Source: an uncultured Gammaproteobacteria bacterium
GTDB taxonomy: Bacteria; Patescibacteriota; Microgenomatia; UBA12405; JAHJSD01
Assembly (NCBI GenBank): GCA_964498425.1
Contig: CAZCGQ010000002.1
Coordinates: forward strand, 34,193-98,192
Direction: 5' to 3'
DNA length: 64,000 bases
In this document: one piece after another, positions 4,826-63,779 of the stretch
How positions within the stretch are numbered: the first letter of the stretch is position 1
How the letters are laid out: every line of letters starts with the position of its first letter
The notes under the pieces: generated by a model
Told to the model about the DNA's origin: nothing
Databases searched by the model: none
Seen by the model: only the letters and a program-made list of their open reading frames with translations
Made by a program: the position numbers and the translations under genes

Positions 4826-5299
4826 ATGGCTGAACTCGGCAACTACGATAAGCTAAATCCTCTTGAGCGGGCGAGATTGTTTAAAAGAATTAAAGAGGAT
4901 GAAGGCTTAAGCTACAAGGAACTTGCTAAGAAAATTGATAAGAGTGCTTCTTTTGTTGCTAATTCTGTTCGATTAATAGATCTTCCGATTGCAATTAAGG
5001 ATGGATTAATGGGTGGGGTAATTTCAGAAGGACACGCAAGAGCTTTGGCTTCTTTAAATAATCCAACCGATTGTATTTCAGTTTATAAAGAGGTTTTGAA
5101 AAGTCATGCTACGGTTAGAGAAACGGAAGAATTGGTTAGGGAAAAGAAGCAGGACCAAAAAAGTAAAGTAGATATTGATGAAAAACAAGCTAAAAAAATT
5201 AAGGATTTTTTAGAAAAACTTCTTGATGTTGAAATTAGTGAAATTGAGGCTAATCCTAAGGTGAGCCGACTAATCTTAAAGGTTTTTTTGAATAGTTAA
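4826..5299 (+). CDS. ParB/Spo0J-like HTH protein lacking the N-terminal ParB/Srx domain
   Basis: LSYKELAKKIDKSASFVANSVRLIDLP...ISEGHARAL matches the ParB HTH region. No GERRxRA-type N-terminal domain is present. Confidence 0.5.
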   Translation: MAELGNYDKLNPLERARLFKRIKEDEGLSYKELAKKIDKSASFVANSVRLIDLPIAIKDGLMGGVISEGHARALASLNNPTDCISVYKEVLKSHATVRETEELVREKKQDQKSKVDIDEKQAKKIKDFLEKLLDVEISEIEANPKVSRLILKVFLNS

Positions 5300-5862
5300 T
5301 AGTCGGCGTGTTCAATTAAGCCAACTCTATCCGTTGGCCAGTAACGGAAGAAGGCTCGGCCAACAATGTCTTCTTTAGGTGTCGTGCCAAATTCGCGACC
5401 ATCACGGGAATGTGAACGGTTATCGCCTAGAAGTAGATATTGGCCTTGGGGGACAATTAAGGGCTTTCCTTCACGAAGATAACTTCCTGAGGCGGTTTTA
5501 AAGTCTAATGGCAGATATTCTTCATAAAGCGGGTCACCGTTTATCCAAATCCGGTCGTTTAGAATTCTGATGGTTTCACCGGGAAGTCCAATAACTCGTT
5601 TAATGTATTCACATTCGTTTTCGGCACAAGGCTCGCTGGGAGGGGCTTTGAAAACAACAACTTCCCCTCGTTGCGGCTCACGTCGTTTATAGCTGACTTT
5701 TTCGGTTAAAACGAATTCTTTGTCGTGAAAGTTTGGCTCCATTGAGTGGCCGTGAACCTGGTTTGGCTGGGCGACAAAGAGGTAGAGCAAAACAAAGACG
5801 GATAAGGCCAAAACAAGGGCCTGAACTGAATCTAGAAAAAATCTGAAAACTTTCTTAAACAT
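5296..5862 (-). CDS. lepB: Signal peptidase I
   Basis: N-terminal TM helix, HGHSMEPNF (Ser box), GDNRSHSRDGREFG (box E). Confidence 0.85.
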   Translation of the reverse strand: MFKKVFRFFLDSVQALVLALSVFVLLYLFVAQPNQVHGHSMEPNFHDKEFVLTEKVSYKRREPQRGEVVVFKAPPSEPCAENECEYIKRVIGLPGETIRILNDRIWINGDPLYEEYLPLDFKTASGSYLREGKPLIVPQGQYLLLGDNRSHSRDGREFGTTPKEDIVGRAFFRYWPTDRVGLIEHADY

Positions 5863-5908: not shown

Positions 5909-5981
5909 GGGCCTGTAGCTCAGCGGTTGGAGCGCGCCGTTCACATCGGCGAGGCCAGTGGTTCGAATCCACTCAGGCCCA
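5909..5981 (+). tRNA. tRNA-Val (anticodon CAC)
   Basis: Cloverleaf GGGCCTG/CAGGCCC acceptor, GCTC/GAGC D-stem, anticodon loop TTCACAT, TTCGAAT T-loop. CCA is not encoded. Confidence 0.85.
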
Positions 5982-6794
5982 CAGATTGATGGTTGTGAAA
6001 TAACGCCCGCGGTAGTTGGAAAATCGGGGAGAGGAGAGAATTAGTTTCTTGGCTTCGTCAATGTTAAAACTCTTAGGGTTTAGTATATCTGTAAACTTTG
6101 ATAGTTTATCCCAAGAGTAAGCTTCTTTTGGTTTTCCACCGGATTGATTCCAATTATCGGTCTTTTGCTGAGAGAGATAAAAGTCGGTTGTTAAGTATAT
6201 TTTGCCGTTGTTTTTTTTCACTCGAAGCATTTCTTTTAACGCTTGTTTTGTTCTTGGCCAGTCGTCTAGGTGTTCTATGGCAGATATGGATATGACCAGG
6301 TCGAATTGATTGTCTTTGAACGGCATTTGGCACATATCGGCTTTAACGAAATTAACCTTTGTTTCCGGCACATCCGACCAGGGCTTATTTATTTTCTTTA
6401 TGTCTAAGGACGTAACGTCTGCTTTTAAACTAGCTAAATATTCTGGAAGTAAGCTTGGGCCAGTACCAATATCAAGAATTTTTAATCCCTTGAAATTAGT
6501 ATCTTTTAGTAGATTAAGCAATGCGCCATATTCCCAAGCCCGTATGCCATATGTTTCCGGCTCAAATATCCGTTGAAACCAACCAGAATGAAATTCACCC
6601 AGCTTTTTTATTTTCTGTCTAACCAGACGAATATCTTGACGGTCAGAAATCTTGTTTTGAAGAGGATCTTCTTGGCTATTGAAAGGAGTAACCCATTCCC
6701 AACCATAATTTAACAACCATTTTGTATCCCAATATCCATTTTTGCTGAATAGTTTGATCCAGTTGATTAGGGCTTGGTGCCAGTATTGCCGCAT
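5973..6794 (-). CDS. Class I SAM-dependent methyltransferase
   Basis: LKILDIGTGPSLLPEYL (motif I), DLVISISAIEHL. The stop codon overlaps the tRNA-Val 3' end by 9 nt. Confidence 0.7.
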   Translation of the reverse strand: MRQYWHQALINWIKLFSKNGYWDTKWLLNYGWEWVTPFNSQEDPLQNKISDRQDIRLVRQKIKKLGEFHSGWFQRIFEPETYGIRAWEYGALLNLLKDTNFKGLKILDIGTGPSLLPEYLASLKADVTSLDIKKINKPWSDVPETKVNFVKADMCQMPFKDNQFDLVISISAIEHLDDWPRTKQALKEMLRVKKNNGKIYLTTDFYLSQQKTDNWNQSGGKPKEAYSWDKLSKFTDILNPKSFNIDEAKKLILSSPRFSNYRGRYFTTINLWA

Positions 6795-6818: not shown

Positions 6819-9449
6819 TTATCGCGGTTGGCGAACTCTTGATGGATTTTTGAAGTATGTTTCTTGACCTAAGTTTATGCCAAAGTAAGCATCTGGTTGA
6901 GCAAGAAAATATTTATACTGATTGGTTTCTTCAGCGGCTAGACCATTTATTGCTTCTCCTAATTTTAAACTAGCCGGCTTCAACTTATTGATATCCTGAT
7001 TACGATCATTGGCTAATTGCAAATAATTTTTGCCTAAACTGGAATAACCAACTGCTTTTTTAAAATTATTTAAGGCATCTTGTTTGGAAATCGACAAGTG
7101 ATATTGATTAATTTTTTGCCAAGCAGAAACAAGCAAGCGACTAATTTCTAGTGAATGATTGAATTTAGCAATTTCGTTTTCTAATAGCTTTTTCCTATAT
7201 TCCGACAAGTTATCTAGAGCATTTTTGATTTCAGCGATTACATCTAACCAATTTTGACTGTCTACGTTATCAATGGCTGAAGAAATGTTGTTTTCAGCAG
7301 TATTGAGAACTTGAGCATTGTTGTCGTTTAGTTTTCTTAACTCAAACAAGGCTAGTTCGAGCAAGTTTTTTCCAGTTTGATCAACTAAGGGGTCTTCTTC
7401 TGGTTGATTGGGCTTGATTTCAAATAAGTATTCTTTTTCTTGACTTAAGCTTATTTCGCCTTGATAGGTTTGCCAGTAACTGCCTTGTGGGGTTAACTGT
7501 CCCAAATAGAGATGATAGGTTCCGTCGGCAATTCCGGTTAATTTTGCTAGATAGTCATTTGGATTTTGAGGATGATCAATATATACCATTTGTAGATCAT
7601 CTTCTTCTGGAGTGTAAGTTTGGCCAGTATTTAAGTCTTCAACCTCTAAAACAGCAGGAGAGGCTAAGTAAAAAATTAGCATATCGCTGGCTGAGGGTAA
7701 CTTATACCCAGGGGCAAGGGTTGGGATTACTGGGTTGCTAATTCCAATCTCTTTTAAAATTTCTTCTAAGGGCTGGTCATCGTGGACTAGTTCCTTGTGT
7801 TCTAATGGGAACTCTAATGGATTGTCATTTCCGAGATAACTGCTCGAACGAAGAACTGTTTGGTCTCCAACACCAAATAAGGTTTGAATCGGCTTACCGT
7901 CAGGCCACAAATTAAGCAATTTGTCGACGAGGTTTGTTTGATTTAAATTAAGCTGTTCTGGAGTAGAGTCCGGCATGTTTCCGGCAATGAAACTGGTCTG
8001 GTTGATAAATGTATTTGTTACCGGATCGGCATTGAGGTCAATCAAATAGTTATTAATAAAATTGTGGCCGTTATTTGACGATAGCATCTGACCATCTTTA
8101 AAAAGATAATCAAAGGAGGGTGTTAGGTCGTATAAAACTGGAGCAAAGTTTTGAATTACTGCAGCATCGATTTGAAAACCACGTCGATTGATGTGAACTA
8201 ATAACTCCATGCCAATCCATTCTAGATCTCGCTGTTCGCCAATTTTACCGCCGGCTAAGGCTTGATAGGCTTGAACAGCACCTTGATGAGGAGAACCTAC
8301 GGTTACTATCTTCCCAACCTTGTTTTGATTATCTTTAGCCCACTGTCTACTAACCATACCGCCTAAAGAATGTCCAATTAAATTAATTTTGTCCTTTGTT
8401 TTTAAGCCGTCAGTATTTTCAATGAAAAAAGCTAGATCATCGGCGGATTCTGATATTGGCTGACGCCAATCATACGGCCAAAGAAACAAATCTTCACCAG
8501 TTGTATAACCATTTTGCTCAAGTGCATGATATAACCGTTGATAGACTGGTTTAGCGAATGGGATTAGCTTCCACTCGCTTTGATCAACCTCCTGGTCTAA
8601 GACCATTGCCTTTGTATTCCAACTTGCCGACAACCCCGGCACAACCACCACCCCCTCACTCGTTAAATTCGGTTCTCCAACAGAGCGGACTAATACATCA
8701 TCAAAGCTCTTAATCATTTCTCTACCTTCTGACACACTTGGATAAGTACCACTCCAAGAAGCTAAACCAATGCCTCCAACCGATAAAGGGTTTACGCTTA
8801 TATCTTTAAATTTAACAACTTCATAAAAACTGGTACTATCCGGACATTTAATAAACAAATTAAATTTATTTTCGGATACCTCTACCCTTAATGAATACCA
8901 TTTGTTATTGTAAATCGAACAACCTATCCTTTCCGGCTGAATTTCCATCCAAGTATTTTTAAAATTAATATTTTCATCATCACCAATTATTTCTGCCCAG
9001 TCAAAAATATCAATTTCCTGTTTATCGATAACCTTTACTATTCTAATATTATTTTCCTCCCAATATAGAGGGGCATTCGCTCTTAAATCAATAAAATAGT
9101 AACTTTTTTGATCACTTGCCACTCGTATTAGTACATCTTGATCAACTCCATCTTTTCCATACATTTTGACTTCTATAATGTAGTCACTCAAATCGTAAAT
9201 CTGGCTATCAGAAGGAAAATAAGTTTCAAAAACTCTTTTTTCAGCAAAATTGACTTCAATTGACTTGTTACCCAAATCATTATCAACTAATTTCCAATTT
9301 TCTGAACCAATCCAGTATTCTCTAATTGAATCAAAATTATCTTGAAAATAAACAGAACTCGCATATACTGATTTTGAATTAAAAAGGAAGCCAATTATAA
9401 TTACAGAAAGAAAAAAGAAGATGTAATTAACAATTACCTTTAATGGCAT
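6819..9449 (-). CDS. Large secreted alpha/beta-hydrolase (LCAT/PGAP1-like lipase) with an N-terminal ConA/LamG-like domain
   Basis: Signal peptide, WPYDWRQ plus GHSLGG (LCAT-family YDWR and GxSxG nucleophile elbow), 876 aa, C-terminal helical/coiled region. Confidence 0.6.
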   Translation of the reverse strand: MPLKVIVNYIFFFLSVIIIGFLFNSKSVYASSVYFQDNFDSIREYWIGSENWKLVDNDLGNKSIEVNFAEKRVFETYFPSDSQIYDLSDYIIEVKMYGKDGVDQDVLIRVASDQKSYYFIDLRANAPLYWEENNIRIVKVIDKQEIDIFDWAEIIGDDENINFKNTWMEIQPERIGCSIYNNKWYSLRVEVSENKFNLFIKCPDSTSFYEVVKFKDISVNPLSVGGIGLASWSGTYPSVSEGREMIKSFDDVLVRSVGEPNLTSEGVVVVPGLSASWNTKAMVLDQEVDQSEWKLIPFAKPVYQRLYHALEQNGYTTGEDLFLWPYDWRQPISESADDLAFFIENTDGLKTKDKINLIGHSLGGMVSRQWAKDNQNKVGKIVTVGSPHQGAVQAYQALAGGKIGEQRDLEWIGMELLVHINRRGFQIDAAVIQNFAPVLYDLTPSFDYLFKDGQMLSSNNGHNFINNYLIDLNADPVTNTFINQTSFIAGNMPDSTPEQLNLNQTNLVDKLLNLWPDGKPIQTLFGVGDQTVLRSSSYLGNDNPLEFPLEHKELVHDDQPLEEILKEIGISNPVIPTLAPGYKLPSASDMLIFYLASPAVLEVEDLNTGQTYTPEEDDLQMVYIDHPQNPNDYLAKLTGIADGTYHLYLGQLTPQGSYWQTYQGEISLSQEKEYLFEIKPNQPEEDPLVDQTGKNLLELALFELRKLNDNNAQVLNTAENNISSAIDNVDSQNWLDVIAEIKNALDNLSEYRKKLLENEIAKFNHSLEISRLLVSAWQKINQYHLSISKQDALNNFKKAVGYSSLGKNYLQLANDRNQDINKLKPASLKLGEAINGLAAEETNQYKYFLAQPDAYFGINLGQETYFKNPSRVRQPR

Positions 9450-9484
9450 TACTATAATTATAAGCTAACTCATTAAACTATAAT

Positions 9485-10360
9485 ATGTCAAGCAAAACCT
9501 TACCAATAACAGTAATAATTGTAACCTACAATAGTAATAAACATATTTTCAAATGCATCGAAAATATCAGTAAATCTACCCAGACACCAAAGGAGATAAT
9601 TATTTTTGATAATAATTCAAATATTTCACCTTTTAAAGAGATAAAAAAACTAAATAACAAAAAAATTAAAATTCAAACAATTCAAAATAAATCTAATATC
9701 GGTTTCGCAAAAGCTGTAAATAAAGCTAGTAAACAATCAAAAACGGATTATTTACTACTATTAAATCCGGACTTTTACATTAATAAAAAGGCAATTGAAA
9801 GCATATGGAAAACTATGAACTTAAAAATGTCTACAGCGGTTGTAGGAGGAAAAGCAATAGGTCAAAATAATAATATACTCAAAACTATTGCCAACAAACC
9901 AAGTTTTATGACTTTATTTATCGAATTCACTTCTTTAAAGAAAATATTTGAGCTTTTTAACATCGAAAACGCTAGTAATTTCTGGGATTGTAAAGCTTTA
10001 AGATCTAAAAAACCTGTACAGGTCGATGCTGTTTCAGGGTGCTTCATGTTAATCAAAAAGAAGTGGTTTGACGAAATTGGTAAATTTGACCCAAAATTTA
10101 AATTGTATCTAGAAGATCTTGATTTATGTTTAAGAATTGGTAATAAAAATGGAAATATTTATTTTGATCCCCTTAGTTATGGTTACCATATTGAAGGAGG
10201 CAGCAGTGTAGATAAACCAAATAAAATCAATCAGGCTTTCTGGGACAAATCTAAAAGGTATTTTTCTAAAAAATATTTTGGTACACTGGGAAGATTGCTA
10301 ATAGTAGTGTATTTTCTGGATGATATACTACTTAAAATTAAAAAATCAGTACTTAAATGA
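9485..10360 (+). CDS. Family-2 glycosyltransferase
   Basis: ITVIIVTYNSNKHI...IIIFDNNS, DXD-like region, GT2 fold. Gene is very AT-rich. Confidence 0.7.
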   Translation: MSSKTLPITVIIVTYNSNKHIFKCIENISKSTQTPKEIIIFDNNSNISPFKEIKKLNNKKIKIQTIQNKSNIGFAKAVNKASKQSKTDYLLLLNPDFYINKKAIESIWKTMNLKMSTAVVGGKAIGQNNNILKTIANKPSFMTLFIEFTSLKKIFELFNIENASNFWDCKALRSKKPVQVDAVSGCFMLIKKKWFDEIGKFDPKFKLYLEDLDLCLRIGNKNGNIYFDPLSYGYHIEGGSSVDKPNKINQAFWDKSKRYFSKKYFGTLGRLLIVVYFLDDILLKIKKSVLK

Positions 10361-11115
10361 AAGTAACGGGGATAGTTTTAACCAAAAATGAGGAAAGGAA
10401 TATTGAAAGGTGCTTAGAGAGCATTGAATGGTGCAATGAAGTAATTGTAGTTGACGACTTCTCAACGGATAATACCCGCAAAATTGCTGAAAATAGGGGA
10501 GCGGTAGTAGTGAAAAGAAAACTAAATAATGATTTCGCCGCTCAGAGAAATTTTGGCCTGGAAAAAGCTAGCAACGAGTGGGCATTATTTGTAGACGCTG
10601 ATGAAGTTGTCTCCCCTCTTCTTCATGAGGATATTGTGCGACGCGTAAAGGATAAAAAGTATTGCGGTTTTTTAATTCCCCGCCAGGAATATTTTGTTAA
10701 CCATAAACTTCATTGCACTGATAAACCTTCCTGGGATTGGTCTTTTGGTTTTAATAAACTTTTACGGCTTGGCAAAAAAGATGCCGGAAGGTGGGAAGGA
10801 AAGGTTCATGAGGTTTGGAAAATAAGCGGAGAAATTGGTGAGTTGGAAGGAAAACTAATTCACTTTTCTCATCCGGATATAACAACTGCTTTAGAAAAGG
10901 TTAACCAATACTCAACCATTCGAGCAAAAGAGCTGGCTGATAACGGTGAAACTAGTAATTTGTTTGATGTTTTGACATACCCAACGGCAAAGTTTTTTAA
11001 GGATTTTTTTTGGCATGGTGGATATAAAGATAAAACTGCCGGATTTATTTATTCCTTACTGATGGCCTTTCAGTCTTTTTTAACGCGAAGTAAGTTATGG
11101 CAGATAAGTAACTGA
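10357..11115 (+). CDS. Family-2 glycosyltransferase (LPS-core type)
   Basis: VTGIVLTKNEERNIERCLESI...VIVVDDFSTDNT...AQRNFGL...DADE. Confidence 0.7.
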   Translation: MKVTGIVLTKNEERNIERCLESIEWCNEVIVVDDFSTDNTRKIAENRGAVVVKRKLNNDFAAQRNFGLEKASNEWALFVDADEVVSPLLHEDIVRRVKDKKYCGFLIPRQEYFVNHKLHCTDKPSWDWSFGFNKLLRLGKKDAGRWEGKVHEVWKISGEIGELEGKLIHFSHPDITTALEKVNQYSTIRAKELADNGETSNLFDVLTYPTAKFFKDFFWHGGYKDKTAGFIYSLLMAFQSFLTRSKLWQISN

Positions 11116-11814
11116 AAGTGTTTTGTCTGTTTGATTGCCGGCTTTGTCGGTAACAACAATTTCAATTTTATTACCGCCCTCTTGTAATATTACGCTGTCG
11201 GAAAATTCACCTTCTTGGTCAACAATAGCTACATGTTCGTTTACCAACACTCGAGCTTTGGGCTCAGTCCTGCCCTGAACTTCTATTGTTTGTTCTTCTA
11301 ACGCGGCCCCATCTTCCGGCTTAATTATTTCTAATTCTGGAGCTTCTGTGTCATAAATGATTTCAAGCCGCTCTGTTCGCTCACTTTCATTATCAGCAGA
11401 GTCAACTGCCCAGGCAATAAGCTCATTGCTGCCTTCGTCTAACATTAACTTCTCAAGGTTAAATTCCCCTTCTTCATCAGCTTTAGTTTCGATTACTTCT
11501 CCATTTAGATTAATTTTTATTTCAGCTTCTGACTCCGAAACTCCCTTTAATTCTAATTGTCCGCTATTGGTTGCTTCCGGAATGGTATTGAAAAGGGGAA
11601 CTGGGGGAGGAATGACATCTTCATTGGCAATTCTTTCGTTTTCAGATTTTGTTTCACCAAGAAATTCAACGAGGCTGATAAATAAAGGGATGCCCCAGAC
11701 AGCAATAACGGTTACTAAAACAATAGTTAGTAAACCAAAGATTACTGCTCTTCGCCGTATTTTGTCTTCTTCAGTCACGGGTTTTTCTTTTTGATGAAAC
11801 TGATTTGCTTTCGT
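11095..11814 (-). CDS. Membrane-anchored protein with two Ig-like (Big) domains
   Basis: TM helix followed by two repeated beta-rich modules (EIKINLNGEVIETKADEEGEF / VLVNEHVAIVDQEGEFS). Start chosen at the internal Met; the longer ORF extends to 11862. Confidence 0.45.
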   Translation of the reverse strand, partial: TKANQFHQKEKPVTEEDKIRRRAVIFGLLTIVLVTVIAVWGIPLFISLVEFLGETKSENERIANEDVIPPPVPLFNTIPEATNSGQLELKGVSESEAEIKINLNGEVIETKADEEGEFNLEKLMLDEGSNELIAWAVDSADNESERTERLEIIYDTEAPELEIIKPEDGAALEEQTIEVQGRTEPKARVLVNEHVAIVDQEGEFSDSVILQEGGNKIEIVVTDKAGNQTDKTLSVTYLP

Positions 11815-11903
11815 CATGATTGAACTGGCAAACCCAGCTCGGAGTAATTGTACCAGAATCAATTATCGCTTACAAACAAAGTAAGAATGGGCTAATAAAA
11901 GAG

Positions 11904-12165: not shown

Positions 12166-12702
12166 TTAATCTCTAGGAATTTCAAGCTCCATGCCCGGCT
12201 CAATTACATTAGGATTGTCAATCGACTGGCGATTGGCTCCCCAAATCTTTGGCCACTCAAACATGTCACCATAGGCCCTTAAAGCAATTTTGCTGAGGGA
12301 ATCACCTTCCTTGACAGTGTAAGTGCTTCCTTCGATTTTCATGTCATCAGCAACACCTGTATCTGGTAGTTGAGTAACGGTCATTTCTTTTCTCTCAACA
12401 TCAGGAATGGTGAGCTCTTGACCAACGGCTAAAAGATTAGGACTGCCGAGATTGTTCTCTTCAGCAATATCCACCCAGTTGTAACCAGATAGATAATATT
12501 TTTCGGCTATTTCCCAAAGACTTTCTCCCTGACTAACACTATGTGTAGCAGGTAATTCTGCTTCTTGTTCCTCTTGATCAGAATCTTCTTGCTGTTGTTC
12601 TTGCTCTTGATTTTTCTTAGGCATCGAGGGTAATCCCTTACCTTGAAAATAACGATAGGCTAATCCACCAATAGCGAGAACAACCAAAACACCCATAATC
12701 AT
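12166..12702 (-). CDS. Membrane-anchored protein with two LysM domains
   Basis: TM helix, acidic/Gln-rich linker, two LysM repeats (YTVKEGDSLSKIA...; GESLWEIAEKYY...). The ORF's N-terminal extension to 12933 overlaps tRNA-Asp and was trimmed. Confidence 0.6.
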   Translation of the reverse strand: MIMGVLVVLAIGGLAYRYFQGKGLPSMPKKNQEQEQQQEDSDQEEQEAELPATHSVSQGESLWEIAEKYYLSGYNWVDIAEENNLGSPNLLAVGQELTIPDVERKEMTVTQLPDTGVADDMKIEGSTYTVKEGDSLSKIALRAYGDMFEWPKIWGANRQSIDNPNVIEPGMELEIPRD

Positions 12703-12837
12703 ACTAATAACTTGCTCGGAGTTTTTAACTCTTTGAACTAAATTTTGGTTTTCTTCGTAGTTTATCAATTTATTCACCTCCTTAATTGGGCAGTCAAGGG
12801 CAGGTGGGCAGAAGTCGGAACTTTTAATGCTCCGCGG

Positions 12838-12911
12838 CGGGGCTGACGGGACTCGAACCCGCAACTTGTTCCTCGACAGGGAACTACTCTGACCGATTGA
12901 GTTACAGCCCC
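12838..12911 (-). tRNA. tRNA-Asp (anticodon GTC)
   Basis: GGGGCTGTAACTCAATCGGTCAGAGT..., anticodon loop CTGTCGA, TTCGAGT T-loop. Confidence 0.8.
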
Positions 12912-13117
12912 AATTCAACATTGATTTTATCAAGTAAGACTTTTTAATGCAATAACTAAGTAATAATTTTTATAGAATTTTGAATGATGTTTGTCTTTTG
13001 GGACATATTAGGTTGCATCGTTTAAATATTTTATACTAGTTAAATTTAATTTAACATTTGCTTTTTTAAGTAATGCTGATTAACATCATGGTAGTGAAGG
13101 GAGGTGATGATATTTAA

Positions 13118-38982: not shown

Positions 38983-40374
38983 ATGAAAAGTCTTAATAAA
39001 TTAACAATAACTGAGGCGAGAAAGGGTCTTAAGAATCAAGATTTTACGGTTACAGATTTAGTTAAGGCTTGTCTTAACCGAATTGAAGAAACGAACCAAG
39101 AACTGAATTCATTTTTAACTGTCTGCAAAGAGGAATCTCTTGCCCAAGCCAAAAAATTAGACCAGGATTTAAAAAACGGATCACTAGCCACTAGCACCAA
39201 GCCGCTACTTGGCATTCCTATCGCTGTTAAAGATAATTTTTGTACCCAAGGGGTAAGAACGACTGCCAGCTCTAAGGTTTTGGATAATTTTGTTCCTCCT
39301 TATGACGCAACTGTGGTCGCTAAACTTAAGGAAGCGGGAGCAATTATTATCGGTAAAACTAATATGGATGCTTGGGCTCATGGTTCGTCAACTGAAACTT
39401 CAGCTTACGGCACAACTAAAAACCCTCATAATACCGATTTTTCGCCGGGTGGATCTTCGGGCGGTAGTGCAGCTGCGGTGGCTAGTCATCAAGTTATTGC
39501 GGCGGTTGGTTCGGAAACAGCTGGGTCAATCCGCCAACCAGCGGCTTGGTGCGGTGTGGTTGGATTGAAACCTACTTACGGCCGGGTCAGCCGATGGGGA
39601 TTGATTGCCATGGCTTCATCGACTGATTCTCCTGGGCCGATAACCAAAACTGTTGAAGACGCTGGAATTTTGTTGAGCGTTTTGGCTGGTAAGGATAAAA
39701 AGGATGCCACCAGTTCGAATGAACCGGTCGCCGATTATCAAAGCTATGATTTAGACCCAAAGGAAATCACTATCGGAATTGCCAAAGAATATTTTCTTGA
39801 AAATATGAATAAAGAGGTAAAAGAAGTTGTTAATCAAAAGATTGAAGATTTGAAGAAAGCTGGTTTTAAAGTTAAAGATGTTTCGCTTCTTGATCCCAAA
39901 TATTCTATTGCTGTCTACACTATTGTTCAACGAGCGGAGGTATCTTCAAATTTAGCTAGATTTGACGGCATTCGTTATGGTAATAACCGTACTGCTTTTG
40001 GGTCTGAGGCAAAAAGACGGGTTATGCTTGGTACCCATGTTTTGTCCTCGGGATATTATGATGAGTATTACACTAAAGGCCAGCGGGTAAGAACACTAAT
40101 TAAAGAAGATTTGGATAAGGCTTTTCAAGAAGTTGATGTTATTGTCGCCCCTACGTCTCCAACTCCAGCTTTAAAAATTGGGGAAAGCGCCAAAAGTCCG
40201 ATGTTTGGCGAAATGCAAGACGTTTTAGTAGAGGCTAGCAGTTTAGCCGGGTTACCAGGAATAAGTATTAACGCTGGATTTTCCAACAAACTACCAATAG
40301 GAATTCAATTTTTTGCCCCTCAGTTTAAGGAAAAGTTAGTTTTAGGAATTGCAAGTATGGCGGAAAATGTTTAA
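38983..40374 (+). CDS. gatA: Glu/Asp-tRNA amidotransferase subunit A (amidase)
   Basis: Amidase signature GGSSGGSAAAVA, Ser-cisSer-Lys triad region. Confidence 0.9.
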   Translation: MKSLNKLTITEARKGLKNQDFTVTDLVKACLNRIEETNQELNSFLTVCKEESLAQAKKLDQDLKNGSLATSTKPLLGIPIAVKDNFCTQGVRTTASSKVLDNFVPPYDATVVAKLKEAGAIIIGKTNMDAWAHGSSTETSAYGTTKNPHNTDFSPGGSSGGSAAAVASHQVIAAVGSETAGSIRQPAAWCGVVGLKPTYGRVSRWGLIAMASSTDSPGPITKTVEDAGILLSVLAGKDKKDATSSNEPVADYQSYDLDPKEITIGIAKEYFLENMNKEVKEVVNQKIEDLKKAGFKVKDVSLLDPKYSIAVYTIVQRAEVSSNLARFDGIRYGNNRTAFGSEAKRRVMLGTHVLSSGYYDEYYTKGQRVRTLIKEDLDKAFQEVDVIVAPTSPTPALKIGESAKSPMFGEMQDVLVEASSLAGLPGISINAGFSNKLPIGIQFFAPQFKEKLVLGIASMAENV

Positions 40375-41623
40375 AAGAATTTCTTTGTTTAAAAACCGGA
40401 ATTTTATAAAATTGTGGACGGCACATATTTTGTCTCAATTGTCTGGTTATGGTTTGTTGTTTTTAGTTATTTCTAGAACCTTTGAGTTGACTAATTCCAG
40501 TGTTATTACTGGAATAGTTTATATTTCTTTTTCCTTACCAATGGTTTTTGTTTCGCCTTTTGCCGGATCGTTGGTTGATGCTTGGCCAAAAAGAAGAACC
40601 TTAATTGCTACATATTTGAGCCATTTTGCGATTATTTCTTTTGCAGCGTTGAGCTTTCTGTCGGGCAAGTTTGATTTGATTTATTTTCTTTTGTTTTTGT
40701 TTTCAACGGTAACTTCAGTAAATGATCCGGCAGAGTTAGCCCAACTGCCAAATGTGGTTGAGGATAAAAATGATTTGATGTTGGCCAATAATATTTTCTT
40801 TTTTACCGATCAGGCTTCATTAATAACCGCTTCGGCAATAACCGGTATTTTAGTTAATTTTATTTCTTTTCCAATTACTTTAGGTCTAGTTGGTTTGATG
40901 CCTTTAACGGCAAGTTTGGTTATTTCTAAACTTCCATCGGCTAATGGAGGGGGAGAGCCACTTTCTTTAATTAAGGAACTGGAAAGTTTGCTAAAACGCG
41001 TTAAGGCTGGCTATCAGTTTTTATCCAGCAATACTTTAGTTCTTTATTCATTTGGATTAGTGGTTATTTTTCGGGTTTTGACTTCGTTAGCAGTTTTGCT
41101 CTTGCCGAATATTGCCAATAATATTTTTAATATTTCTGCCTTTGATGCCGGTTATTTTATTATCCTCCCGGTGGCGGTTGGATTATTTGTTGGAACAACG
41201 ATTTTAAATAAACGTGGTGAGGAGGAAAGTCGAAAGAATAAATGGATTGGGACTGGATTTAGTTTGATGGGAATGATGGTTCTGGCTGTGGTTTTTGGCC
41301 GTCAAAGTAATTACGTTATCCAGTTGTTTTTGGATTTGGCTTATTTGGTTTTGATCGGGGTATCAGCGTCTGTCATTTTTGCTCCATCGGTAACTTTTTT
41401 ACACGAATATACCCCAAACCAAGTTCGGGGACATACTTTTGCCAATTTGATGTTTTTTGTTAATCTGGCGATTATTCCATCGTCGCTTTTGGCAACGTCT
41501 TTGGCCGAGCTTTTAGGTATTCAAGCATTGATGGCCGGGGTCGGGTTCTTGATTTTAATTCTTGGCGTTATAATTATTAACAAAGGAAATGCAATCATCT
41601 TGGCAACCAATAATCGGAGTTGA
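40349..41623 (+). CDS. MFS transporter inserted between gatA and gatB
   Basis: About 12 TM helices; DAWPKRR loop. Confidence 0.6.
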   Translation: MQVWRKMFKRISLFKNRNFIKLWTAHILSQLSGYGLLFLVISRTFELTNSSVITGIVYISFSLPMVFVSPFAGSLVDAWPKRRTLIATYLSHFAIISFAALSFLSGKFDLIYFLLFLFSTVTSVNDPAELAQLPNVVEDKNDLMLANNIFFFTDQASLITASAITGILVNFISFPITLGLVGLMPLTASLVISKLPSANGGGEPLSLIKELESLLKRVKAGYQFLSSNTLVLYSFGLVVIFRVLTSLAVLLLPNIANNIFNISAFDAGYFIILPVAVGLFVGTTILNKRGEEESRKNKWIGTGFSLMGMMVLAVVFGRQSNYVIQLFLDLAYLVLIGVSASVIFAPSVTFLHEYTPNQVRGHTFANLMFFVNLAIIPSSLLATSLAELLGIQALMAGVGFLILILGVIIINKGNAIILATNNRS

Positions 41624-42896
41624 AATCCATGTTGAGCTGAACACGGCATCAAAGATGTTCTGCCGATGTCAGAACGACCATTTTCAAGTGGAACCGAATA
41701 CCCATGTCTGTCCGGTTTGTTTAGGATTACCGGGTGCCTTGCCAGTACCTAATCAAGCGGCTATTGATAACACAATCATGATTGCTTTGACCCTCAACTG
41801 CAATGTTAATGAGGAGTTTTGGTTTGACCGCAAAAATTATTTTTACCCAGATTTGCCAAAGGGGTATCAAATATCCCAACATTTTTCTCCAATTGGGGTT
41901 AAGGGAAAAGTGCCAATTTTGATTGACGGGGAATTTATGGATATCGGAATTAATGATGTCCATTTGGAAGAGGATACCGGTAAATTGGTCCATCAGGATG
42001 ATAAGTCATTGATTGATTTTAACCGCAGTGGAGTGCCTCTGGTTGAAATTGTCTCCAGCCCGGATTTACATTCAGCTAAGCAGACTAAGGTTTATTTGAA
42101 ACGGATCCAACAGACTTTACGCTGGCTGGGTGTTTCTGACTGTGATATGGAGAAGGGGTCAATGCGGTTGGAGGCAAATATTTCAGTCGCGGACTCCTCA
42201 GAGGTGGCCGCGTTACCTGATTACAGGGTAGAAGTTAAGAACTTGAATTCGTTTAGGTTTGTGGAGAAAGCAATTGATTATGAGGTTAAGCGCCAAATAA
42301 AGCTTTTAGAAAAAGGTGAAAAACCTCGGCAAGAAACTCGCGGTTATGATTCTGACAAAGATATGACTTTTGTTCAACGCGGAAAGGAAGTCGCTAAAGA
42401 CTATCGCTATTTCCCTGAACCAGATATACCACCCTTTAATGTTCAAAAATCCAATATCCAAATGTTCAAAAAGAAAATTAATAAATTACCTTGGGAGGAA
42501 GAGAGGAAAATTATTGAGGCCGGGGTTAGATGGAAGTGGGCGGAGATTATTGCTCGGGAAACGGCAACGATTAACTTGTTTTGGCAGACTGTTCAATCCG
42601 GACTTGACGCTGAAGATGTGGCTAATTATATGGTTAATAACCCTTTACCCGAGGATACTACCGCAAAAGATTTGGCCAAAATAATTAAAGCAGAACAAGA
42701 CAAGTTTGATTTGGGTGAAAATGAAGTAAAAAAAGCAGTTAAAAAGGCAATTTCAGAAAATCCACAAGCTGTTGAAGATTACCAGTCAGGCAAAAAGGCA
42801 GCGGTTGGATTTTTAATTGGGCAAGTAATGAAATTAACTTCCGGCCGGGCTGATCCAAACACCGCCCGCCAACTGCTAATAGAAGAACTAAAATAA
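41589..42896 (+). CDS. gatB: Glu/Asp-tRNA amidotransferase subunit B
   Basis: IGVEIHVELNTASKMFCRC...CPVCLGLPGALP matches the GatB N-terminus; C-terminal YqeY-like domain. Confidence 0.9.
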   Translation: MQSSWQPIIGVEIHVELNTASKMFCRCQNDHFQVEPNTHVCPVCLGLPGALPVPNQAAIDNTIMIALTLNCNVNEEFWFDRKNYFYPDLPKGYQISQHFSPIGVKGKVPILIDGEFMDIGINDVHLEEDTGKLVHQDDKSLIDFNRSGVPLVEIVSSPDLHSAKQTKVYLKRIQQTLRWLGVSDCDMEKGSMRLEANISVADSSEVAALPDYRVEVKNLNSFRFVEKAIDYEVKRQIKLLEKGEKPRQETRGYDSDKDMTFVQRGKEVAKDYRYFPEPDIPPFNVQKSNIQMFKKKINKLPWEEERKIIEAGVRWKWAEIIARETATINLFWQTVQSGLDAEDVANYMVNNPLPEDTTAKDLAKIIKAEQDKFDLGENEVKKAVKKAISENPQAVEDYQSGKKAAVGFLIGQVMKLTSGRADPNTARQLLIEELK

Positions 42897-60056: not shown

Positions 60057-61817
60057 ATGTATAATGAATTTATGAAACCTAAATATATTTTAGCAAACTT
60101 AGTTTGTCTTAGTTTCATTTTAAGCGTTTTTGCCTTTCCTATTCAGGGGATAACTGAATTTACAGCAACTAACGAGTTAACTTATGAAGTAAATCCACGA
60201 GGAAACGGTAGTGTTTCTCAAGAAATCAGCTTAACTAATAATTTTTCCAATATTTTCCCCAAAGAATACCAACTGCAAGTTACGGGAAATAAAATTGAAA
60301 ATATAACCGCCTCTGATTCCAAAGGTTCAATCCTAAAGAAGGTTGAAGAGTATGATGAAAAGACAATCATTAAGTTGTCATTTAACGACTCCGTTGTTGG
60401 TAAGGACAAACAAACTGCCTTTACTATCAACTATGATTTGCCAAACCTAGCAACTAAACGTGGTCAAATTTGGGAAATAGCTATCCCTGAGCTCGGTAGT
60501 AAGGATGAATTTGAAGAACTGAAAACTATCGTTAAGGTTCCTCAAGCTTTTGGCTCCCTTGCCTACAGTTCAATTTCTCCCCAAACCGAGAAAACCCTCA
60601 ACAATCAACAAGTATTAACCTATAACAAAAATCAGCTTGGCAATAACCCGATTTTGCTAGCCTTTGGGGAATTTCAAATTTTTGATTTTGACCTTGACTT
60701 CACCTTGATTAATGAAACTAGCCAAATAACCACCAAAACGGTGCCAATACCTCCAGATACAAGCTACCAAAGTGTTTTCCTAACTGCAATTAATCCCAAG
60801 CCAATAAAAATTGACTATGACGAAGATTATAATTGGCTAGCTTATTATCAATTGTCTCCTGGCCAAATTATTGAAATTAATGTTCAAGGTCAAGCTAAAA
60901 TATATTCTAAGCCAGAGAATATCAAGGCAACAGAATTAAATAGAAATGCCTCTTTATCACCATATTTAGAAGATGATGAGTATTGGCAGGTTAATTCTCC
61001 AACTATCCAAAATATCGCCGATTATTTTTCTAGCCCAAAACAAATATATAATTTTGTCATTGACGAACTCGAATATGATTTTGAAAACTTAAAAAACACG
61101 GAAAGATTAGGGGCAGTAGAAGCTTACAAACAAAAGCAAGGAGTTTGCACTGAGTTTAGCGACCTTTTTATAACTTTATCCAGAGCAACCCAAATTCCAG
61201 CTCGGGAGTTACAGGGTTTTGCCTTCACTGAAAATAAAGAACTTTTTACATTAGCCGCTGAAAATGATGTTTTACATTCTTGGGTTGAATATTGGGACTC
61301 TAGTAAAAAAATATGGGTGCCAGCTGACCCAACCTGGGCAAAAACAACGGAAGGAATAGATTTTATTGATGACTTTGATCTTGGACATTTTGCCTTTGTA
61401 ATTCACGGCCACAGCAGTACAAACCCAGCTCCTCCTGGCTTTTACAAAACCACCAATAACCAGAAGAAAAACGTAAAGGTTAATTTTGCTGAAAAATTAA
61501 TCCCTCCACCCAGCTCAAACCTTGAAGCAAAAATTGCCAAAGACCATATAAGTATTAAAAATAATAGTTTTTCACCAGCTTACCAGACTAAGGTTGTTCT
61601 TCATGGCTGGAGCAATAAAAAAGTGAAGACTAAAACTATTGGCGGATTGCCTCCATTAGGAGAAGTAAAGTTTGAAATTGAAGAACCCGGATTTTGGGCC
61701 AGGCTTTTTCGCAAATCAAAGTACAAAGTTGAAATTGATAAAGAAATATTTGAACTGAAATATCCTCGGAAAAAATTGAATTTTTTTGACTTTTTTGCTA
61801 ACCTTTGGCCAGGTTAA
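60057..61817 (+). CDS. Secreted transglutaminase-like protein
   Basis: Signal peptide plus the Cys-His-Asp core (GVCTEFSDLF...IPARELQGF...HSWVEYWD...PADPTW). Confidence 0.6.
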   Translation: MYNEFMKPKYILANLVCLSFILSVFAFPIQGITEFTATNELTYEVNPRGNGSVSQEISLTNNFSNIFPKEYQLQVTGNKIENITASDSKGSILKKVEEYDEKTIIKLSFNDSVVGKDKQTAFTINYDLPNLATKRGQIWEIAIPELGSKDEFEELKTIVKVPQAFGSLAYSSISPQTEKTLNNQQVLTYNKNQLGNNPILLAFGEFQIFDFDLDFTLINETSQITTKTVPIPPDTSYQSVFLTAINPKPIKIDYDEDYNWLAYYQLSPGQIIEINVQGQAKIYSKPENIKATELNRNASLSPYLEDDEYWQVNSPTIQNIADYFSSPKQIYNFVIDELEYDFENLKNTERLGAVEAYKQKQGVCTEFSDLFITLSRATQIPARELQGFAFTENKELFTLAAENDVLHSWVEYWDSSKKIWVPADPTWAKTTEGIDFIDDFDLGHFAFVIHGHSSTNPAPPGFYKTTNNQKKNVKVNFAEKLIPPPSSNLEAKIAKDHISIKNNSFSPAYQTKVVLHGWSNKKVKTKTIGGLPPLGEVKFEIEEPGFWARLFRKSKYKVEIDKEIFELKYPRKKLNFFDFFANLWPG

Positions 61818-62441: not shown

Positions 62442-63779
62442 ATGAAAAGAATTAAATTTCTTTTTCAATACATAACTAAACTGATAAACAGATATTGGTA
62501 TTTTATTTTGGGTAGCTGCTTTCTAACTGGCTTAATCTTTTTTTTCTCCGTTCAATTTTCCAGCCTTATAAGCCAGCAAATACCCGATAAAAAATATGTT
62601 GGTGTTGTTGGCAAATATCGTTTAAATAACCTGCCTCCAGACATATATAAACTATTCAGCTACGGTCTAACTGAGATTATGCCCAACAGTAGAGCGACTC
62701 GATCTCCGATTGTTTCTAATTGGACTATTGATGCTGAAGGTCAAGAATACACCTTTTACCTTAAAGATAATGTCTACTGGCAAAACGGAGACCCATTAAA
62801 ATCTGACCAAATCAATTATGATATTCAAGGAGCGACATTTAATCCGGAGTTAAACAAAGTTATCATTAAGCTCGATTCACCATTTGCTCCGTTGCCAACT
62901 TTACTTAATCAACCGCTGATAAAAAAGAAAAAAATTGGGCTCGGCAAATATAGAATTCAATCACTACAAATTCAGGCTGGTGCAATATCCGCAATGACCT
63001 TATCTAAAGATAAACCCCAAAAAGAAAAAATACTTCTTAGCTTTTACCCAAGCCAAGAGGAATTAATTACCGCTTTTCAGTTAGGAAAAATCGATGAAGT
63101 TTGGAATGTAACAGAATTAAATGAAATAAAAAGTTGGAAAAATATTGAAATTAAAACTGAACAACATGCAACGACTAACTACGCAGCAGTTTTTTTTAAC
63201 ACTAAAAAACCGCCTTTGGATAACAAAAGAGTTCGCCAAGCCTTAGCCTACTGCTTAAAAAAACCACCCAAAAAAGATAGAGCAATAGGCCCAATATCTC
63301 CATCATCTTGGGCTTACAACGAGGGAGTAAAAACTTATTCATACGATCCTTCCCACGGAAGAAAACTTTTTGAAGAAGGTTGGGATCCAGGCGAAAAAAT
63401 GAATTTAACCTTGTCAACCCTACCAGAGTTATTAGATTGGGCTGAAGAAATAAAGGATGATTGGCAAAATAATCTTAATATCAATATAACTATAAAGGTG
63501 TCAAGGTTTGTCCCAGAACCTAATAATTTTGATGTATTTTTAGGATATGGAATTATACCCCCAGATCCCGACCAATATACCTTTTGGCATTCCACTCAAT
63601 CCGAAAATTTAACTGGTCTAAACAATGCTAAAATTGATCAATTACTCGAAAAGGGACGAAAAACAATTGACAGCGAAGAAAGAAAGGAAATATATTATGA
63701 TTTCCAGCAAACACTATCAGAAGAAGTACCCGCTATATTTCTTTTTTATCCTAAAAAATACAAGATAATTAGGAAATAG
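62442..63779 (+). CDS. ABC transporter solute-binding protein (family 5, peptide/oligopeptide type)
   Basis: N-terminal TM/signal anchor; overall length and motifs match the SBP_bac_5 pattern. Confidence 0.5.
   Translation: MKRIKFLFQYITKLINRYWYFILGSCFLTGLIFFFSVQFSSLISQQIPDKKYVGVVGKYRLNNLPPDIYKLFSYGLTEIMPNSRATRSPIVSNWTIDAEGQEYTFYLKDNVYWQNGDPLKSDQINYDIQGATFNPELNKVIIKLDSPFAPLPTLLNQPLIKKKKIGLGKYRIQSLQIQAGAISAMTLSKDKPQKEKILLSFYPSQEELITAFQLGKIDEVWNVTELNEIKSWKNIEIKTEQHATTNYAAVFFNTKKPPLDNKRVRQALAYCLKKPPKKDRAIGPISPSSWAYNEGVKTYSYDPSHGRKLFEEGWDPGEKMNLTLSTLPELLDWAEEIKDDWQNNLNINITIKVSRFVPEPNNFDVFLGYGIIPPDPDQYTFWHSTQSENLTGLNNAKIDQLLEKGRKTIDSEERKEIYYDFQQTLSEEVPAIFLFYPKKYKIIRK

Follow-up and report, generated by a model that had tools for sequence, protein, structure and literature searches.

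The window, that is, the whole 64,000-nt stretch of DNA that was analysed, contains on its minus strand an ORF for a protein of 876 aa, running from an ATG start to a TAA stop; its coordinates and length are as originally predicted. The product has a lectin-type head, a phospholipase-like core, a β-sandwich and a helical tail without known relatives. The gene, its modules and the most relevant neighbours are as follows:

6819–9449, minus strand: whole gene, encoding the 876-aa, predicted secreted four-module hydrolase (stop codon at 6819–6821; ORF list and translation)
9360–9449, minus strand: signal peptide, aa 1–30, with an n-region MPLK, a 19-aa hydrophobic core and a V-Y-A↓S cleavage-type site (presumed cleaved)
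8664–9359, minus strand: ConA-like jelly-roll head of the DUF1080/CBM66 type, aa 31–262 (AF2, Foldseek, and PF06439 via homologues)
7695–8663, minus strand: α/β-hydrolase core (lipase/phospholipase type) with cap insertion, aa 263–585
7905–8252, minus strand: cap/lid insertion, aa ~400–515, separating the elbow region from the strand that carries the Asp (model secondary structure)
7380–7694, minus strand: β-sandwich domain, aa 586–690, modelled with seven strands (pLDDT ~85–96)
6822–7379, minus strand: C-terminal seven-helix bundle, aa 691–876 (pLDDT above 90)
5296–5862, minus strand (same as the gene): signal peptidase I gene (lepB), downstream (Peptidase_S26, E 5.8e-47)
9485–11115, plus strand: two GT2 glycosyltransferase genes, 9485–10360 and 10357–11115, divergent from the gene (Glycos_transf_2, E 4e-19 and 3e-21)

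Database matches show that the ORF is a genuine gene, conserved in other genomes, rather than a reading frame that arose by chance: an identical protein is on record at NCBI (P0001), and 520 cluster representatives match it with E<=1e-30. Among the relatives found, those of full length come exclusively from Microgenomates-group CPR genomes, which fits the earlier guess of a small-genome episymbiont. The family is a large one with full-length members confined to one major CPR group, and it is so far undescribed: literature searches for CPR/Patescibacteria lipases or phospholipases of its type turned up no account of it. A named housekeeping esterase was rejected as an identity, as an NCBIfam search gave only sub-threshold, generic matches to the nucleophile elbow; together with the database searches, this places the protein outside the characterized housekeeping esterase families. 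The protein had been called giant; at 876 aa it is large, but not giant.

The neighbours comprise a methyltransferase, lepB, the GT2 pair, an Ig-like protein and a LysM protein. Full-length members occupy a conserved locus next to lepB, which is the best-conserved neighbour: in 10 of 14 CPR-type loci (L001–L014) lepB lies on the downstream side, and in L002 it directly follows the orthologue. The original prediction had passed over lepB and stressed the GT2 genes and the Ig-like protein instead; both are indeed present, but the emphasis is weak, as GT2 genes are kept at about half of the loci (in L001, L002, L007, L010 and L013 on the upstream side of the orthologue, in L011 on the downstream side), and the Ig-like gene at just one of the 14. 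The GC content of GT2a is just 27.6%. Also discarded were the methyltransferase (5973–6794) as a functional partner, since it is not conserved at orthologous loci, and the Ig-like and LysM proteins as a conserved 'surface module', since they occur together in L002 only. A scan for promoters and terminators around the gene gave counts no higher than in shuffled sequence.

The N-terminus presents a signal-type segment, from which Sec export is predicted. The segment, aa 1–29, is the sole hydrophobic, TM-like stretch of the whole protein and leads into V28-Y29-A30↓S31; in the AF2 model of the head, aa 3–23 form a helix. Moreover, this layout recurs in homologues: at −1, nearly all of the 25 that were aligned have Ala or, in some cases, Gly, a small residue located 1–3 residues ahead of the first strand of the head. 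Thus, the signal peptide proposed at the outset is borne out, as is the ConA/LamG-like jelly-roll region that follows it. A dedicated AF2 model of the head (pLDDT 88.5, pTM 0.83) has a ConA-like jelly-roll fold of the DUF1080/CBM66 type, and its top Foldseek matches are the CBM66 structures 4azz and 4b1m (E 3e-7, TM 0.71–0.76), the CBM66 of Bacillus subtilis being the best fold match; next in the list come the L-type lectins, namely, ERGIC-53, VIP36 and the legume lectins. Recourse to the DUF1080 profile gave a divided answer: in Pfam, PF06439 is matched by 18 of 25 homologous heads, with a best E value of 5.4e-12, but the head of the protein itself finds neither DUF1080 nor LamG even at E<=10, so that its membership of PF06439 is transitive only. 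When only the head was used to query a word-indexed database, nothing was retrieved, not even the protein itself, and a profile search gave a single outside match, to a protein carrying both PF07589 and PF06439. Hence, although the head and CBM66 have the ConA-like β-jelly-roll fold in common, the former lies below Pfam detection and contains an additional, lineage-specific insertion of about 19 aa (aa ~150–170). The mature protein has two cysteines, C177 and C202, and both are located in the head.

Across the family, the position of the head is taken either by one of two jelly-roll subtypes (A and B) or by a propeller of the GH43/GH32/GH130 type, all of which are carbohydrate-enzyme-like. From a comparison of heads and cores across the family, and from the low GC content of the head (31.3%, versus 41.7% for the core), it is apparent that the head has been swapped among lineages, while the catalytic body has stayed constant. 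We found no previous description of a CBM66/PF06439-type head fused to a lipase core. The head is a candidate glycan-binding module, and it would presumably engage carbohydrate; however, its role may go beyond binding, as PF06439 includes true enzymes (3-keto-disaccharide hydrolases).

Within the α/β-hydrolase core, both the WPYDWR motif and the GHSLGG elbow are present, as had been predicted, and three further elements can be added:

8616–8639, minus strand: PGLSASWN block, aa 271–278, located after strand 1, where the oxyanion-hole loop typically lies
8463–8480, minus strand: WPYDWR motif, aa 324–329, inside the Pfam LCAT match
8358–8375, minus strand: nucleophile elbow GHSLGG, aa 359–364, with the putative catalytic Ser361 at 8367–8369
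7863–7865, minus strand: putative catalytic Asp529, in GDQTV
7797–7799, minus strand: putative catalytic His551

These elements are strongly conserved in the family alignment. In the PGLSASWN block, to which an oxyanion role may be assigned by analogy with α/β-hydrolase topology, P271, G272 and S276 are each kept in 175 of the 183 rows, W277 in 168 and N278 in 163; in WPYDWR, the figures are 181 for both Y326 and W328, 174 for D327 and 166 for R329. H360, S361 and G363 of the elbow recur in 182 rows (the remaining row has a gap), and GHSLGG aligns to the GHSxGG elbow of family I lipases in phmmer and profile searches of PDB sequences. The elbow serine does have Asp and His partners: Asp529 is found in all 183 rows, and His551 in 182, with a gap in the other. 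Asp529 is part of GDQTV, where the family consensus is GDGTVL, and it aligns, albeit sub-threshold, to D308 of the ENDGVV motif in the Burkholderia lipase 8xy5; moreover, the Asp529–His551 spacing, 22 residues, equals that between D308 and H330 of 8xy5, which we take to be the catalytic D264 and H286 of the mature lipase. In the model, both residues come after late core strands, a position that fits α/β-hydrolase topology. Ser361, Asp529 and His551 are, therefore, an invariant set and a putative catalytic triad, which supports a prediction, made at the level of sequence, of a catalytically intact serine hydrolase of the lipase type.

The description of the core as LCAT-like holds in part. Three Pfam families exceed their gathering thresholds, namely, LCAT, PGAP1 (also named in the original prediction) and Palm_thioest. 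The match to LCAT (PF02450, the family of LCAT, LPLA2 and PDAT) reaches 55.7 bits, where the gathering score is 21 (E 6.6e-15), but it extends only from aa 302 to 406, corresponding to profile positions 68–180 of 392, less than a third of the profile. The Asp/His half has no sequence-detectable kinship with LCAT or LPLA2 (group XV PLA2): a profile of this segment, run against PDB sequences, retrieved no LCAT, LPLA2 or lipase, noise alone. LCAT and LPLA2 carry a similar Asp motif, 'GD(D/G)TV', which may be a lead to such kinship. The Asp–His spacing of LCAT is 32, whereas that of the protein, at 22, is like that of bacterial family I lipases. In fold comparisons, Tle4, LPLA2, BlEst2 and the family I lipases resemble the core to much the same degree.

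The cap is confidently modelled as three helices (409–421, 428–441 and 467–484) plus a β-hairpin, and has no match in Pfam; by analogy with the architecture of lipases, LPLA2 and Tle4, it could serve as a lipid-binding lid. The C-terminal half had been described as a long helical region. There is, indeed, a helical bundle, with seven helices spanning aa ~694–865, but this is preceded by the β-sandwich (aa ~586–690), the strands of which occupy aa 590–678 in the model. The β-sandwich also lacks a Pfam match, and is kept in 178 of 182 family members. The top Foldseek match, over 530 aligned columns (E 9e-10), is the propeptide form of BlEst2 (6wpx), and takes in the hydrolase plus the C-terminal domains. 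BlEst2 is also the closest structural match of EstA3, in which the C-terminal β-sandwich is required for C12-16 substrates (PMC10816834). The helical bundle is a novel module: it has no consistent match in Pfam, no significant match in the PDB and no known relatives. Iterative searching detects it in 104 of 183 relatives, in which R752 and E863 are its only invariant residues. The tail could conceivably be a fused lipase chaperone of the Lif type, but it gives no Lipase_chap signal in Pfam.

In a fold search, the nearest solved structures of the core are the phospholipid-attacking enzymes Tle4 and LPLA2. Tle4 (TplE, PA1510; PDB code: 4r1d), a T6SS phospholipase A1 effector of Pseudomonas aeruginosa, has the hydrolase fold with GxSxG in common with the core, but has neither head, sandwich nor helical modules; it is delivered by type VI secretion and paired with an immunity protein, Tli4, whereas export by signal peptide is predicted here. 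The neighbouring genes scanned include no T6SS gene and no gene of the immunity type, and the other large genes of the window that were scanned have housekeeping functions. Compared with LPLA2 and LCAT, the protein adds the lectin-like head, the β-sandwich and the helical bundle, is encoded by a CPR bacterium and is predicted to be Sec-secreted. In BlEst2 (Bacillus licheniformis) and EstA3 (Thermoanaerobacter tengcongensis), as in our model, a C-terminal β-sandwich packs after the lipase core; however, 6wpx is absent from both the phmmer and the profile searches of the PDB, and BlEst2, therefore, has no detectable sequence similarity to the protein. The chains of these Firmicutes enzymes are shorter (6wpx has 450 aa), which suggests that they have no counterpart of the lectin-like head or of the helical bundle of the CPR family. 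With the family I.1/I.2 lipases (P. aeruginosa LipA and the lipases of Burkholderia cepacia, B. glumae and B. stagnalis), significant alignment is limited to ~55 residues around the elbow and does not extend over the full length; the cap is far larger than theirs, three extra domains are present and there is no gene for a Lif foldase (Lipase_chap) among the neighbours.

Our main reading, to which we would give a probability of roughly 0.45, is that the gene product is exported through Sec and acts as a serine acyl-hydrolase of the lipase/phospholipase A type. Signal peptidase I would cleave the signal peptide, leaving the enzyme either released or surface-associated; the head would bind a glycan on the target surface, for instance, the envelope of a host cell or of a neighbour, or lipid associated with a polymer; the cap would open at the lipid interface; and Ser361 would attack the acyl ester of a glycerolipid or glycolipid, yielding fatty acid and lysolipid, or transferring the acyl chain. 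By analogy with EstA3 and BlEst2, the β-sandwich probably aids the binding of long acyl chains or gates the site, and, more speculatively, the helical bundle could regulate or inhibit the enzyme from within the same chain. The released products could be taken up by a CPR cell that is auxotrophic for lipids. CPR bacteria have been reported to lack lipid synthesis, yet CPR/Patescibacteria membranes are ordinary, fatty-acid-based and enriched in lysolipids, which may derive from the action of phospholipase A on other cells (PMC7242380). It is this reported inability to make lipids that suggests a role in taking lipids from other cells; phospholipase or acyltransferase activity, and the harvesting of host lipids, are putative for this protein.

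The heads fit a different substrate equally well. As the jelly-rolls and GH43/GH32/GH130-type propellers are all carbohydrate-enzyme-like, the protein could be a glycan-directed carbohydrate or glycolipid esterase, whose head binds or processes polysaccharide, and which removes acetyl, feruloyl or fatty acyl groups from polysaccharides, lipoglycans, lipoteichoic acid or peptidoglycan, while sparing membrane phospholipid; we regard this as unlikely, albeit deserving of serious attention. A general extracellular lipase or esterase, acting on free environmental lipids (necromass, triacylglycerols and wax esters), would require no host contact, and its head would merely tether it to particles or to the wall of the producer itself. 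In its favour, the elbow is similar in sequence (E ~1e-4 to 3e-8) to that of the secreted triacylglycerol lipases of families I.1/I.2, and the structure is close to secreted Streptomyces and Bacillus lipases. The missing immunity gene is also in keeping with it. Overall, we judge such a lipase to be rather improbable. For the main reading, the missing immunity gene is a point against, and it implies either that the enzyme is not membrane-toxic or that protection is intrinsic.

If the similarity to LCAT were taken at face value, the enzyme might be a transacylase that remodels the producer's own envelope, passing acyl chains from a donor lipid, possibly derived from the host, to an acceptor lysolipid or to a glycan made by the neighbouring GT2 enzymes. 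Hydrolysis and transfer cannot be told apart from sequence, the match to LCAT is partial, the LCAT-specific cap and membrane-binding portions are undetected by sequence, and GT2 adjacency is not universal; a transacylase, therefore, seems decidedly improbable. Finally, the secreted multidomain architecture, the lectin-like head and the proximity of the Ig-like surface protein and the LysM protein would suit a structural or adhesive surface protein that keeps the hydrolase fold without catalysing anything. However, the Ser, Asp and His residues, together with the elbow, the YDWR block and the block of the oxyanion region, hardly vary at all among 183 relatives, the cores of which are only ~27–60% identical to that of the protein: such a pattern is the mark of purifying selection for catalysis, and makes a non-catalytic role highly improbable.

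Returning to the acyl-hydrolase, its several features can be joined into a more ambitious scheme, which we consider distinctly unlikely as a whole: the missing lipid-acquisition device of Microgenomates-group CPR bacteria, in which a Sec-secreted phospholipase A is equipped with an exchangeable, glycan-recognizing head (either jelly-roll subtype or the GH-like propeller) that selects the host envelope, and with a cis-immunity tail. Host phospholipids may be converted to lysolipids and fatty acids destined for the symbiont membrane, and the helical bundle, together with the β-sandwich, may be an auto-inhibitor that replaces the separate immunity proteins of Tle enzymes; such a built-in 'cis-immunity' module would explain the absence of an immunity gene. 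Apart from this scheme, the protein is a tangible candidate, open to cloning, for the step by which CPR bacteria may harvest lipids, with the head as a possible determinant of host specificity. Even if the substrate is an acylated glycan, the four-module architecture and the pattern of head-swapping would be new. For all of these readings, everything beyond fold and conservation is inference. A further point against the main reading is the genomic context, which is unlike that of a typical accessory host-interaction factor: the gene keeps a strongly conserved place on the chromosome, with genes for cell division and housekeeping next to it.

The gene at 6819–9449 (minus strand) encodes a multidomain, secreted-type hydrolase that resembles lipases and phospholipases, has conserved catalytic residues and carries a lectin-type head. 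Its reading frame is exactly as the original prediction described it (876 codons, ATG start, TAA stop), and both motifs named there are present, WPYDWR at residues 324–329 and GHSLGG at residues 359–364. This is a real, conserved gene; an identical protein is recorded at NCBI on a 204.6-kb contig, and when 1.84 billion cluster representatives were searched exhaustively with HMMER, 3,738 came up as relatives at E ≤ 1e-3, of which 520 reach E ≤ 1e-30.

A whole-protein AlphaFold2 model, for which 37 family sequences were aligned, is confident between residues ~265 and ~868 (pLDDT mostly >90, pTM 0.71) and delineates the following modules:

Residues ~263–585: alpha/beta core
Residues ~400–515: long cap insertion inside the core
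Residues ~590–678: seven-stranded beta-sandwich
Residues 694–865: seven-helix bundle

The bundle accounts for the C-terminal helical region foreseen earlier, although the beta-sandwich preceding it had been overlooked. The N-terminal ~240 residues are poor in this model because N-terminal domains of unrelated kinds are combined in the alignment; ~40 relatives with N-termini homologous to that of the target were, therefore, extracted, and 25 of these were aligned. Re-prediction with this second alignment (pLDDT 88.5, pTM 0.83) gives a helix at residues 3–23, followed by an all-beta sandwich. Residues 1–29 form the sole transmembrane-like hydrophobic stretch, ending V28-Y29-A30/S31, and nearly all 25 homologues share this layout, with a basic n-region, then a hydrophobic core, then Ala/Gly at −1, a few residues ahead of the first strand; the N-terminus thereby looks like a signal-peptidase-I substrate, which would be cleaved.

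The core passes the Pfam LCAT threshold (55.7 bits against a gathering score of 21), as the LCAT-like assignment had implied, but less than a third of the profile is matched: residues 302–406 cover only positions 68–180 of 392. On the elbow region, the Pfam thresholds are also exceeded by PGAP1, Palm_thioest and Abhydrolase_1; nothing in NCBIfam reaches threshold. The Asp and His partners of the nucleophile, whose presence was to be checked, are both there and essentially invariant: across 183 family sequences, Asp529 is found in 183, His551 in 182 and Ser361 in 182 (the remaining row being a gap). The blocks PG..SWN, YDWR, GHSLGG, GSPHxG, WPDG and GDxTV are likewise essentially invariant in these relatives, whose core identity to the target is only 27–60%. 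When PDB sequences were searched with the family profile, the block 'GDgTVl...H' aligned, below threshold, with 'ENDGVV...NH' of the Burkholderia lipase 8xy5 (D308 and H330), and the Asp–His spacing is 22 residues in both. Less a 44-residue leader, D308 and H330 are the catalytic D264 and H286. The sequence link over the distal half is weak, since a stand-alone profile of the Asp/His segment found neither a lipase nor LCAT among PDB sequences.

The DUF1080 search proposed at the outset fails when applied directly to the target's head, which gives zero Pfam matches even at E ≤ 10. The head is nevertheless a ConA-like jelly-roll, as was claimed, because its homologues and its model both point there: PF06439 (3-keto-disaccharide hydrolase, once called DUF1080) is matched by 18 of the 25 homologues, with a best E of 5.4e-12, and Laminin_G_3 or DUF6250 by others, and the closest PDB fold for the confident model is Bacillus subtilis CBM66 (E 3e-7, TM 0.71–0.76), followed by ERGIC-53, VIP36, legume lectins, GH43 beta-sandwich domains and the galactocerebrosidase lectin domain.

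The beta-sandwich is kept in 178 of 182 relatives and, in the target, lacks a Pfam match. EstA3 needs its counterpart of this domain to act on C12–C16 substrates; that EstA3 sandwich is most closely matched by the C-terminal domain of BlEst2, an enzyme in which the C-terminal domains are said to be inhibitory (PMC10816834). The helical bundle, detected in 104 of 183 relatives, has only R752 (in an F-R-K motif) and E863 as invariants. Neither Pfam nor the PDB offers it a consistent relative, and a Lif/Lipase_chap signal is absent.

Bacteria are already known to secrete lipases and phospholipases that carry accessory domains, and the target is of this broad kind. It passes the Pfam LCAT threshold formally; it is no member of the Tle4 family, the scanned genes including no T6SS component or immunity gene; it is no member of the family I lipases, with which the elbow alone aligns and whose Lif is missing; and it has no sequence relationship to BlEst2. 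Nothing in the literature searched describes the family or its architecture. Its novelty lies in the four-module architecture, the helical domain without known relatives, the lineage restriction with conserved synteny and the interchangeable heads.

When 185,579 species-representative genomes were scanned, long matches were confined to Microgenomates-group CPR bacteria (Candidatus Shapirobacteria, Roizmanbacteria, Beckwithbacteria and Microgenomates, together with unclassified 'Patescibacteria group' genomes and three MAGs labelled Gammaproteobacteria). The organism of the window evidently belongs here too. The next-best match, in a Firmicutes MAG, spans 310 residues at 26% identity (E 4e-18), and all the remaining ones cover just 60–150 residues around the elbow. 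The three MAGs, TPA records labelled 'uncultured Gammaproteobacteria', each carry a full-length member (L005, CAYHFH010000001.1; L006, CAYNEE010000012.1; L007, CAYIVY010000082.1); L005 and L006 show the RodA/L21/ParB-like/signal peptidase I synteny of CPR-type loci and L007 a GT2 neighbour only, and the labels are probably wrong. The genes around the target are:

5296–5862, minus strand: signal peptidase I (lepB)
5909–5982, plus strand: tRNA-Val
5973–6794, minus strand: SAM-dependent methyltransferase
9485–10360, plus strand: glycosyltransferase GT2a
10357–11115, plus strand: glycosyltransferase GT2b
11095–11862, minus strand: Ig-like surface protein
12166–12933, minus strand: LysM protein

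Synteny at the locus is kept although protein identity is ~30%: signal peptidase I lies downstream of the orthologue on the same strand in 10 of 14 CPR-type loci, with a ParB-like gene, L21 and RodA/FtsW beyond it, and GT2 genes lie upstream in five. The Ig-like and LysM genes recur at one locus alone (L002). The methyltransferase, wedged between the target and lepB with its 3′ end overlapping tRNA-Val by 10 nt, looks like a lineage-specific insertion, as it is missing from the orthologous loci save for a weak match in L012.

Among the 183 relatives, 48 have the target's jelly-roll head (type A), 32 a head of ~235 aa (type B) and 69 one of ~300–370 aa, the rest being fragments or unclassified. 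Types A and B are remotely homologous (hhalign probability 98.4%, E 1e-14, to which signal peptides in both alignments add somewhat). The longest type matches the five-bladed propellers of GH130, GH43 and GH32 enzymes (7fip, E 2e-14; 4qqs, 3e-12), and in Pfam PF04041, PF04616 and PF00251; relatives P0010–P0037 and about 69 of the 183 representatives carry a propeller, weakly like GH130 mannoside phosphorylase, GH43 or GH32, instead of the jelly-roll. Head type does not track core similarity: the three closest cores (59.9, 53.7 and 46.2% identity) all bear type B heads, and the nearest type A relative has a core identity of only 45.4%. Moreover, orthologous loci sharing the lepB synteny differ in their heads, most matches beginning at about query residues 250–300. 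The head-coding part has a GC content of 31.3% (GC3 22.8%), against 41.7% for the core, 27.6% for GT2a and a window mean of 38.7%; together with GT2a it makes up a low-GC patch (8664–10360), which would fit recent acquisition or exchange of the segment. The head–core mismatch, the differing heads at syntenic loci and the low head GC are suggestive, at the level of sequence, of an N-terminal module exchanged on a stable catalytic body.

Very probably the protein is secreted and works as a lipase-type hydrolase with a lectin-like head, its activity being predicted. Our overall model, a secreted lipase/phospholipase with a glycan-binding head, we place at a little below even odds (roughly 0.45). 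After Sec export and signal cleavage, the head would dock on a glycan and the cap would open at a lipid interface, allowing Ser361 to cleave or transfer an acyl ester; the beta-sandwich might aid acyl-chain binding or gating, and the helical bundle possibly regulates. The main rival, an esterase whose substrates are acylated glycans or glycolipids, draws on the carbohydrate-enzyme-like character of every head type. For the lipase/phospholipase model, a role in harvesting host lipids is raised by a fold near Tle4 and LPLA2, by the CPR restriction, and by the lipid auxotrophy and the enrichment in lysolipids documented for CPR bacteria (PMC7242380), which are stated to have no known mechanism of lipid breakdown or uptake (PMC11665869). 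Tle4 itself has PLA1 activity and is among effectors likely degrading target-cell membrane phospholipids (PMC9860674). This specific role is less likely than not, the functional evidence being inferential throughout; the protein is, however, a good, testable candidate for the acknowledged open question of CPR lipid acquisition.

Elsewhere in the window, the Ig-like protein has Big_13, Glucodextran_B and Big_6 domains and an N-terminal transmembrane segment; its gene, on the strand opposite to GT2b, overlaps the end of the latter by ~20 nt and contains a probably spurious antisense frame of 145 aa (11357–11794, plus strand). The mechanically called LysM frame (255 aa, TTG start) traverses tRNA-Asp (12836–12911) on the same strand, so its first ~35 codons are almost certainly non-coding and the real start lies downstream. 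An MFS-type transporter gene (40349–41623, plus strand; MFS_1, E 1.6e-20) lies between a gatA-like, Amidase-family gene (38983–40374) and gatB (41589–42896), overlapping the ends of both; such an interruption of the gatA–gatB pair looks unusual. Finally, a 586-aa transglutaminase-core protein (60057–61817, plus strand) and, ~600 nt downstream, a family-5 solute-binding protein (62442–63779, plus strand) are further candidates for the surface or uptake machinery that this small genome encodes.
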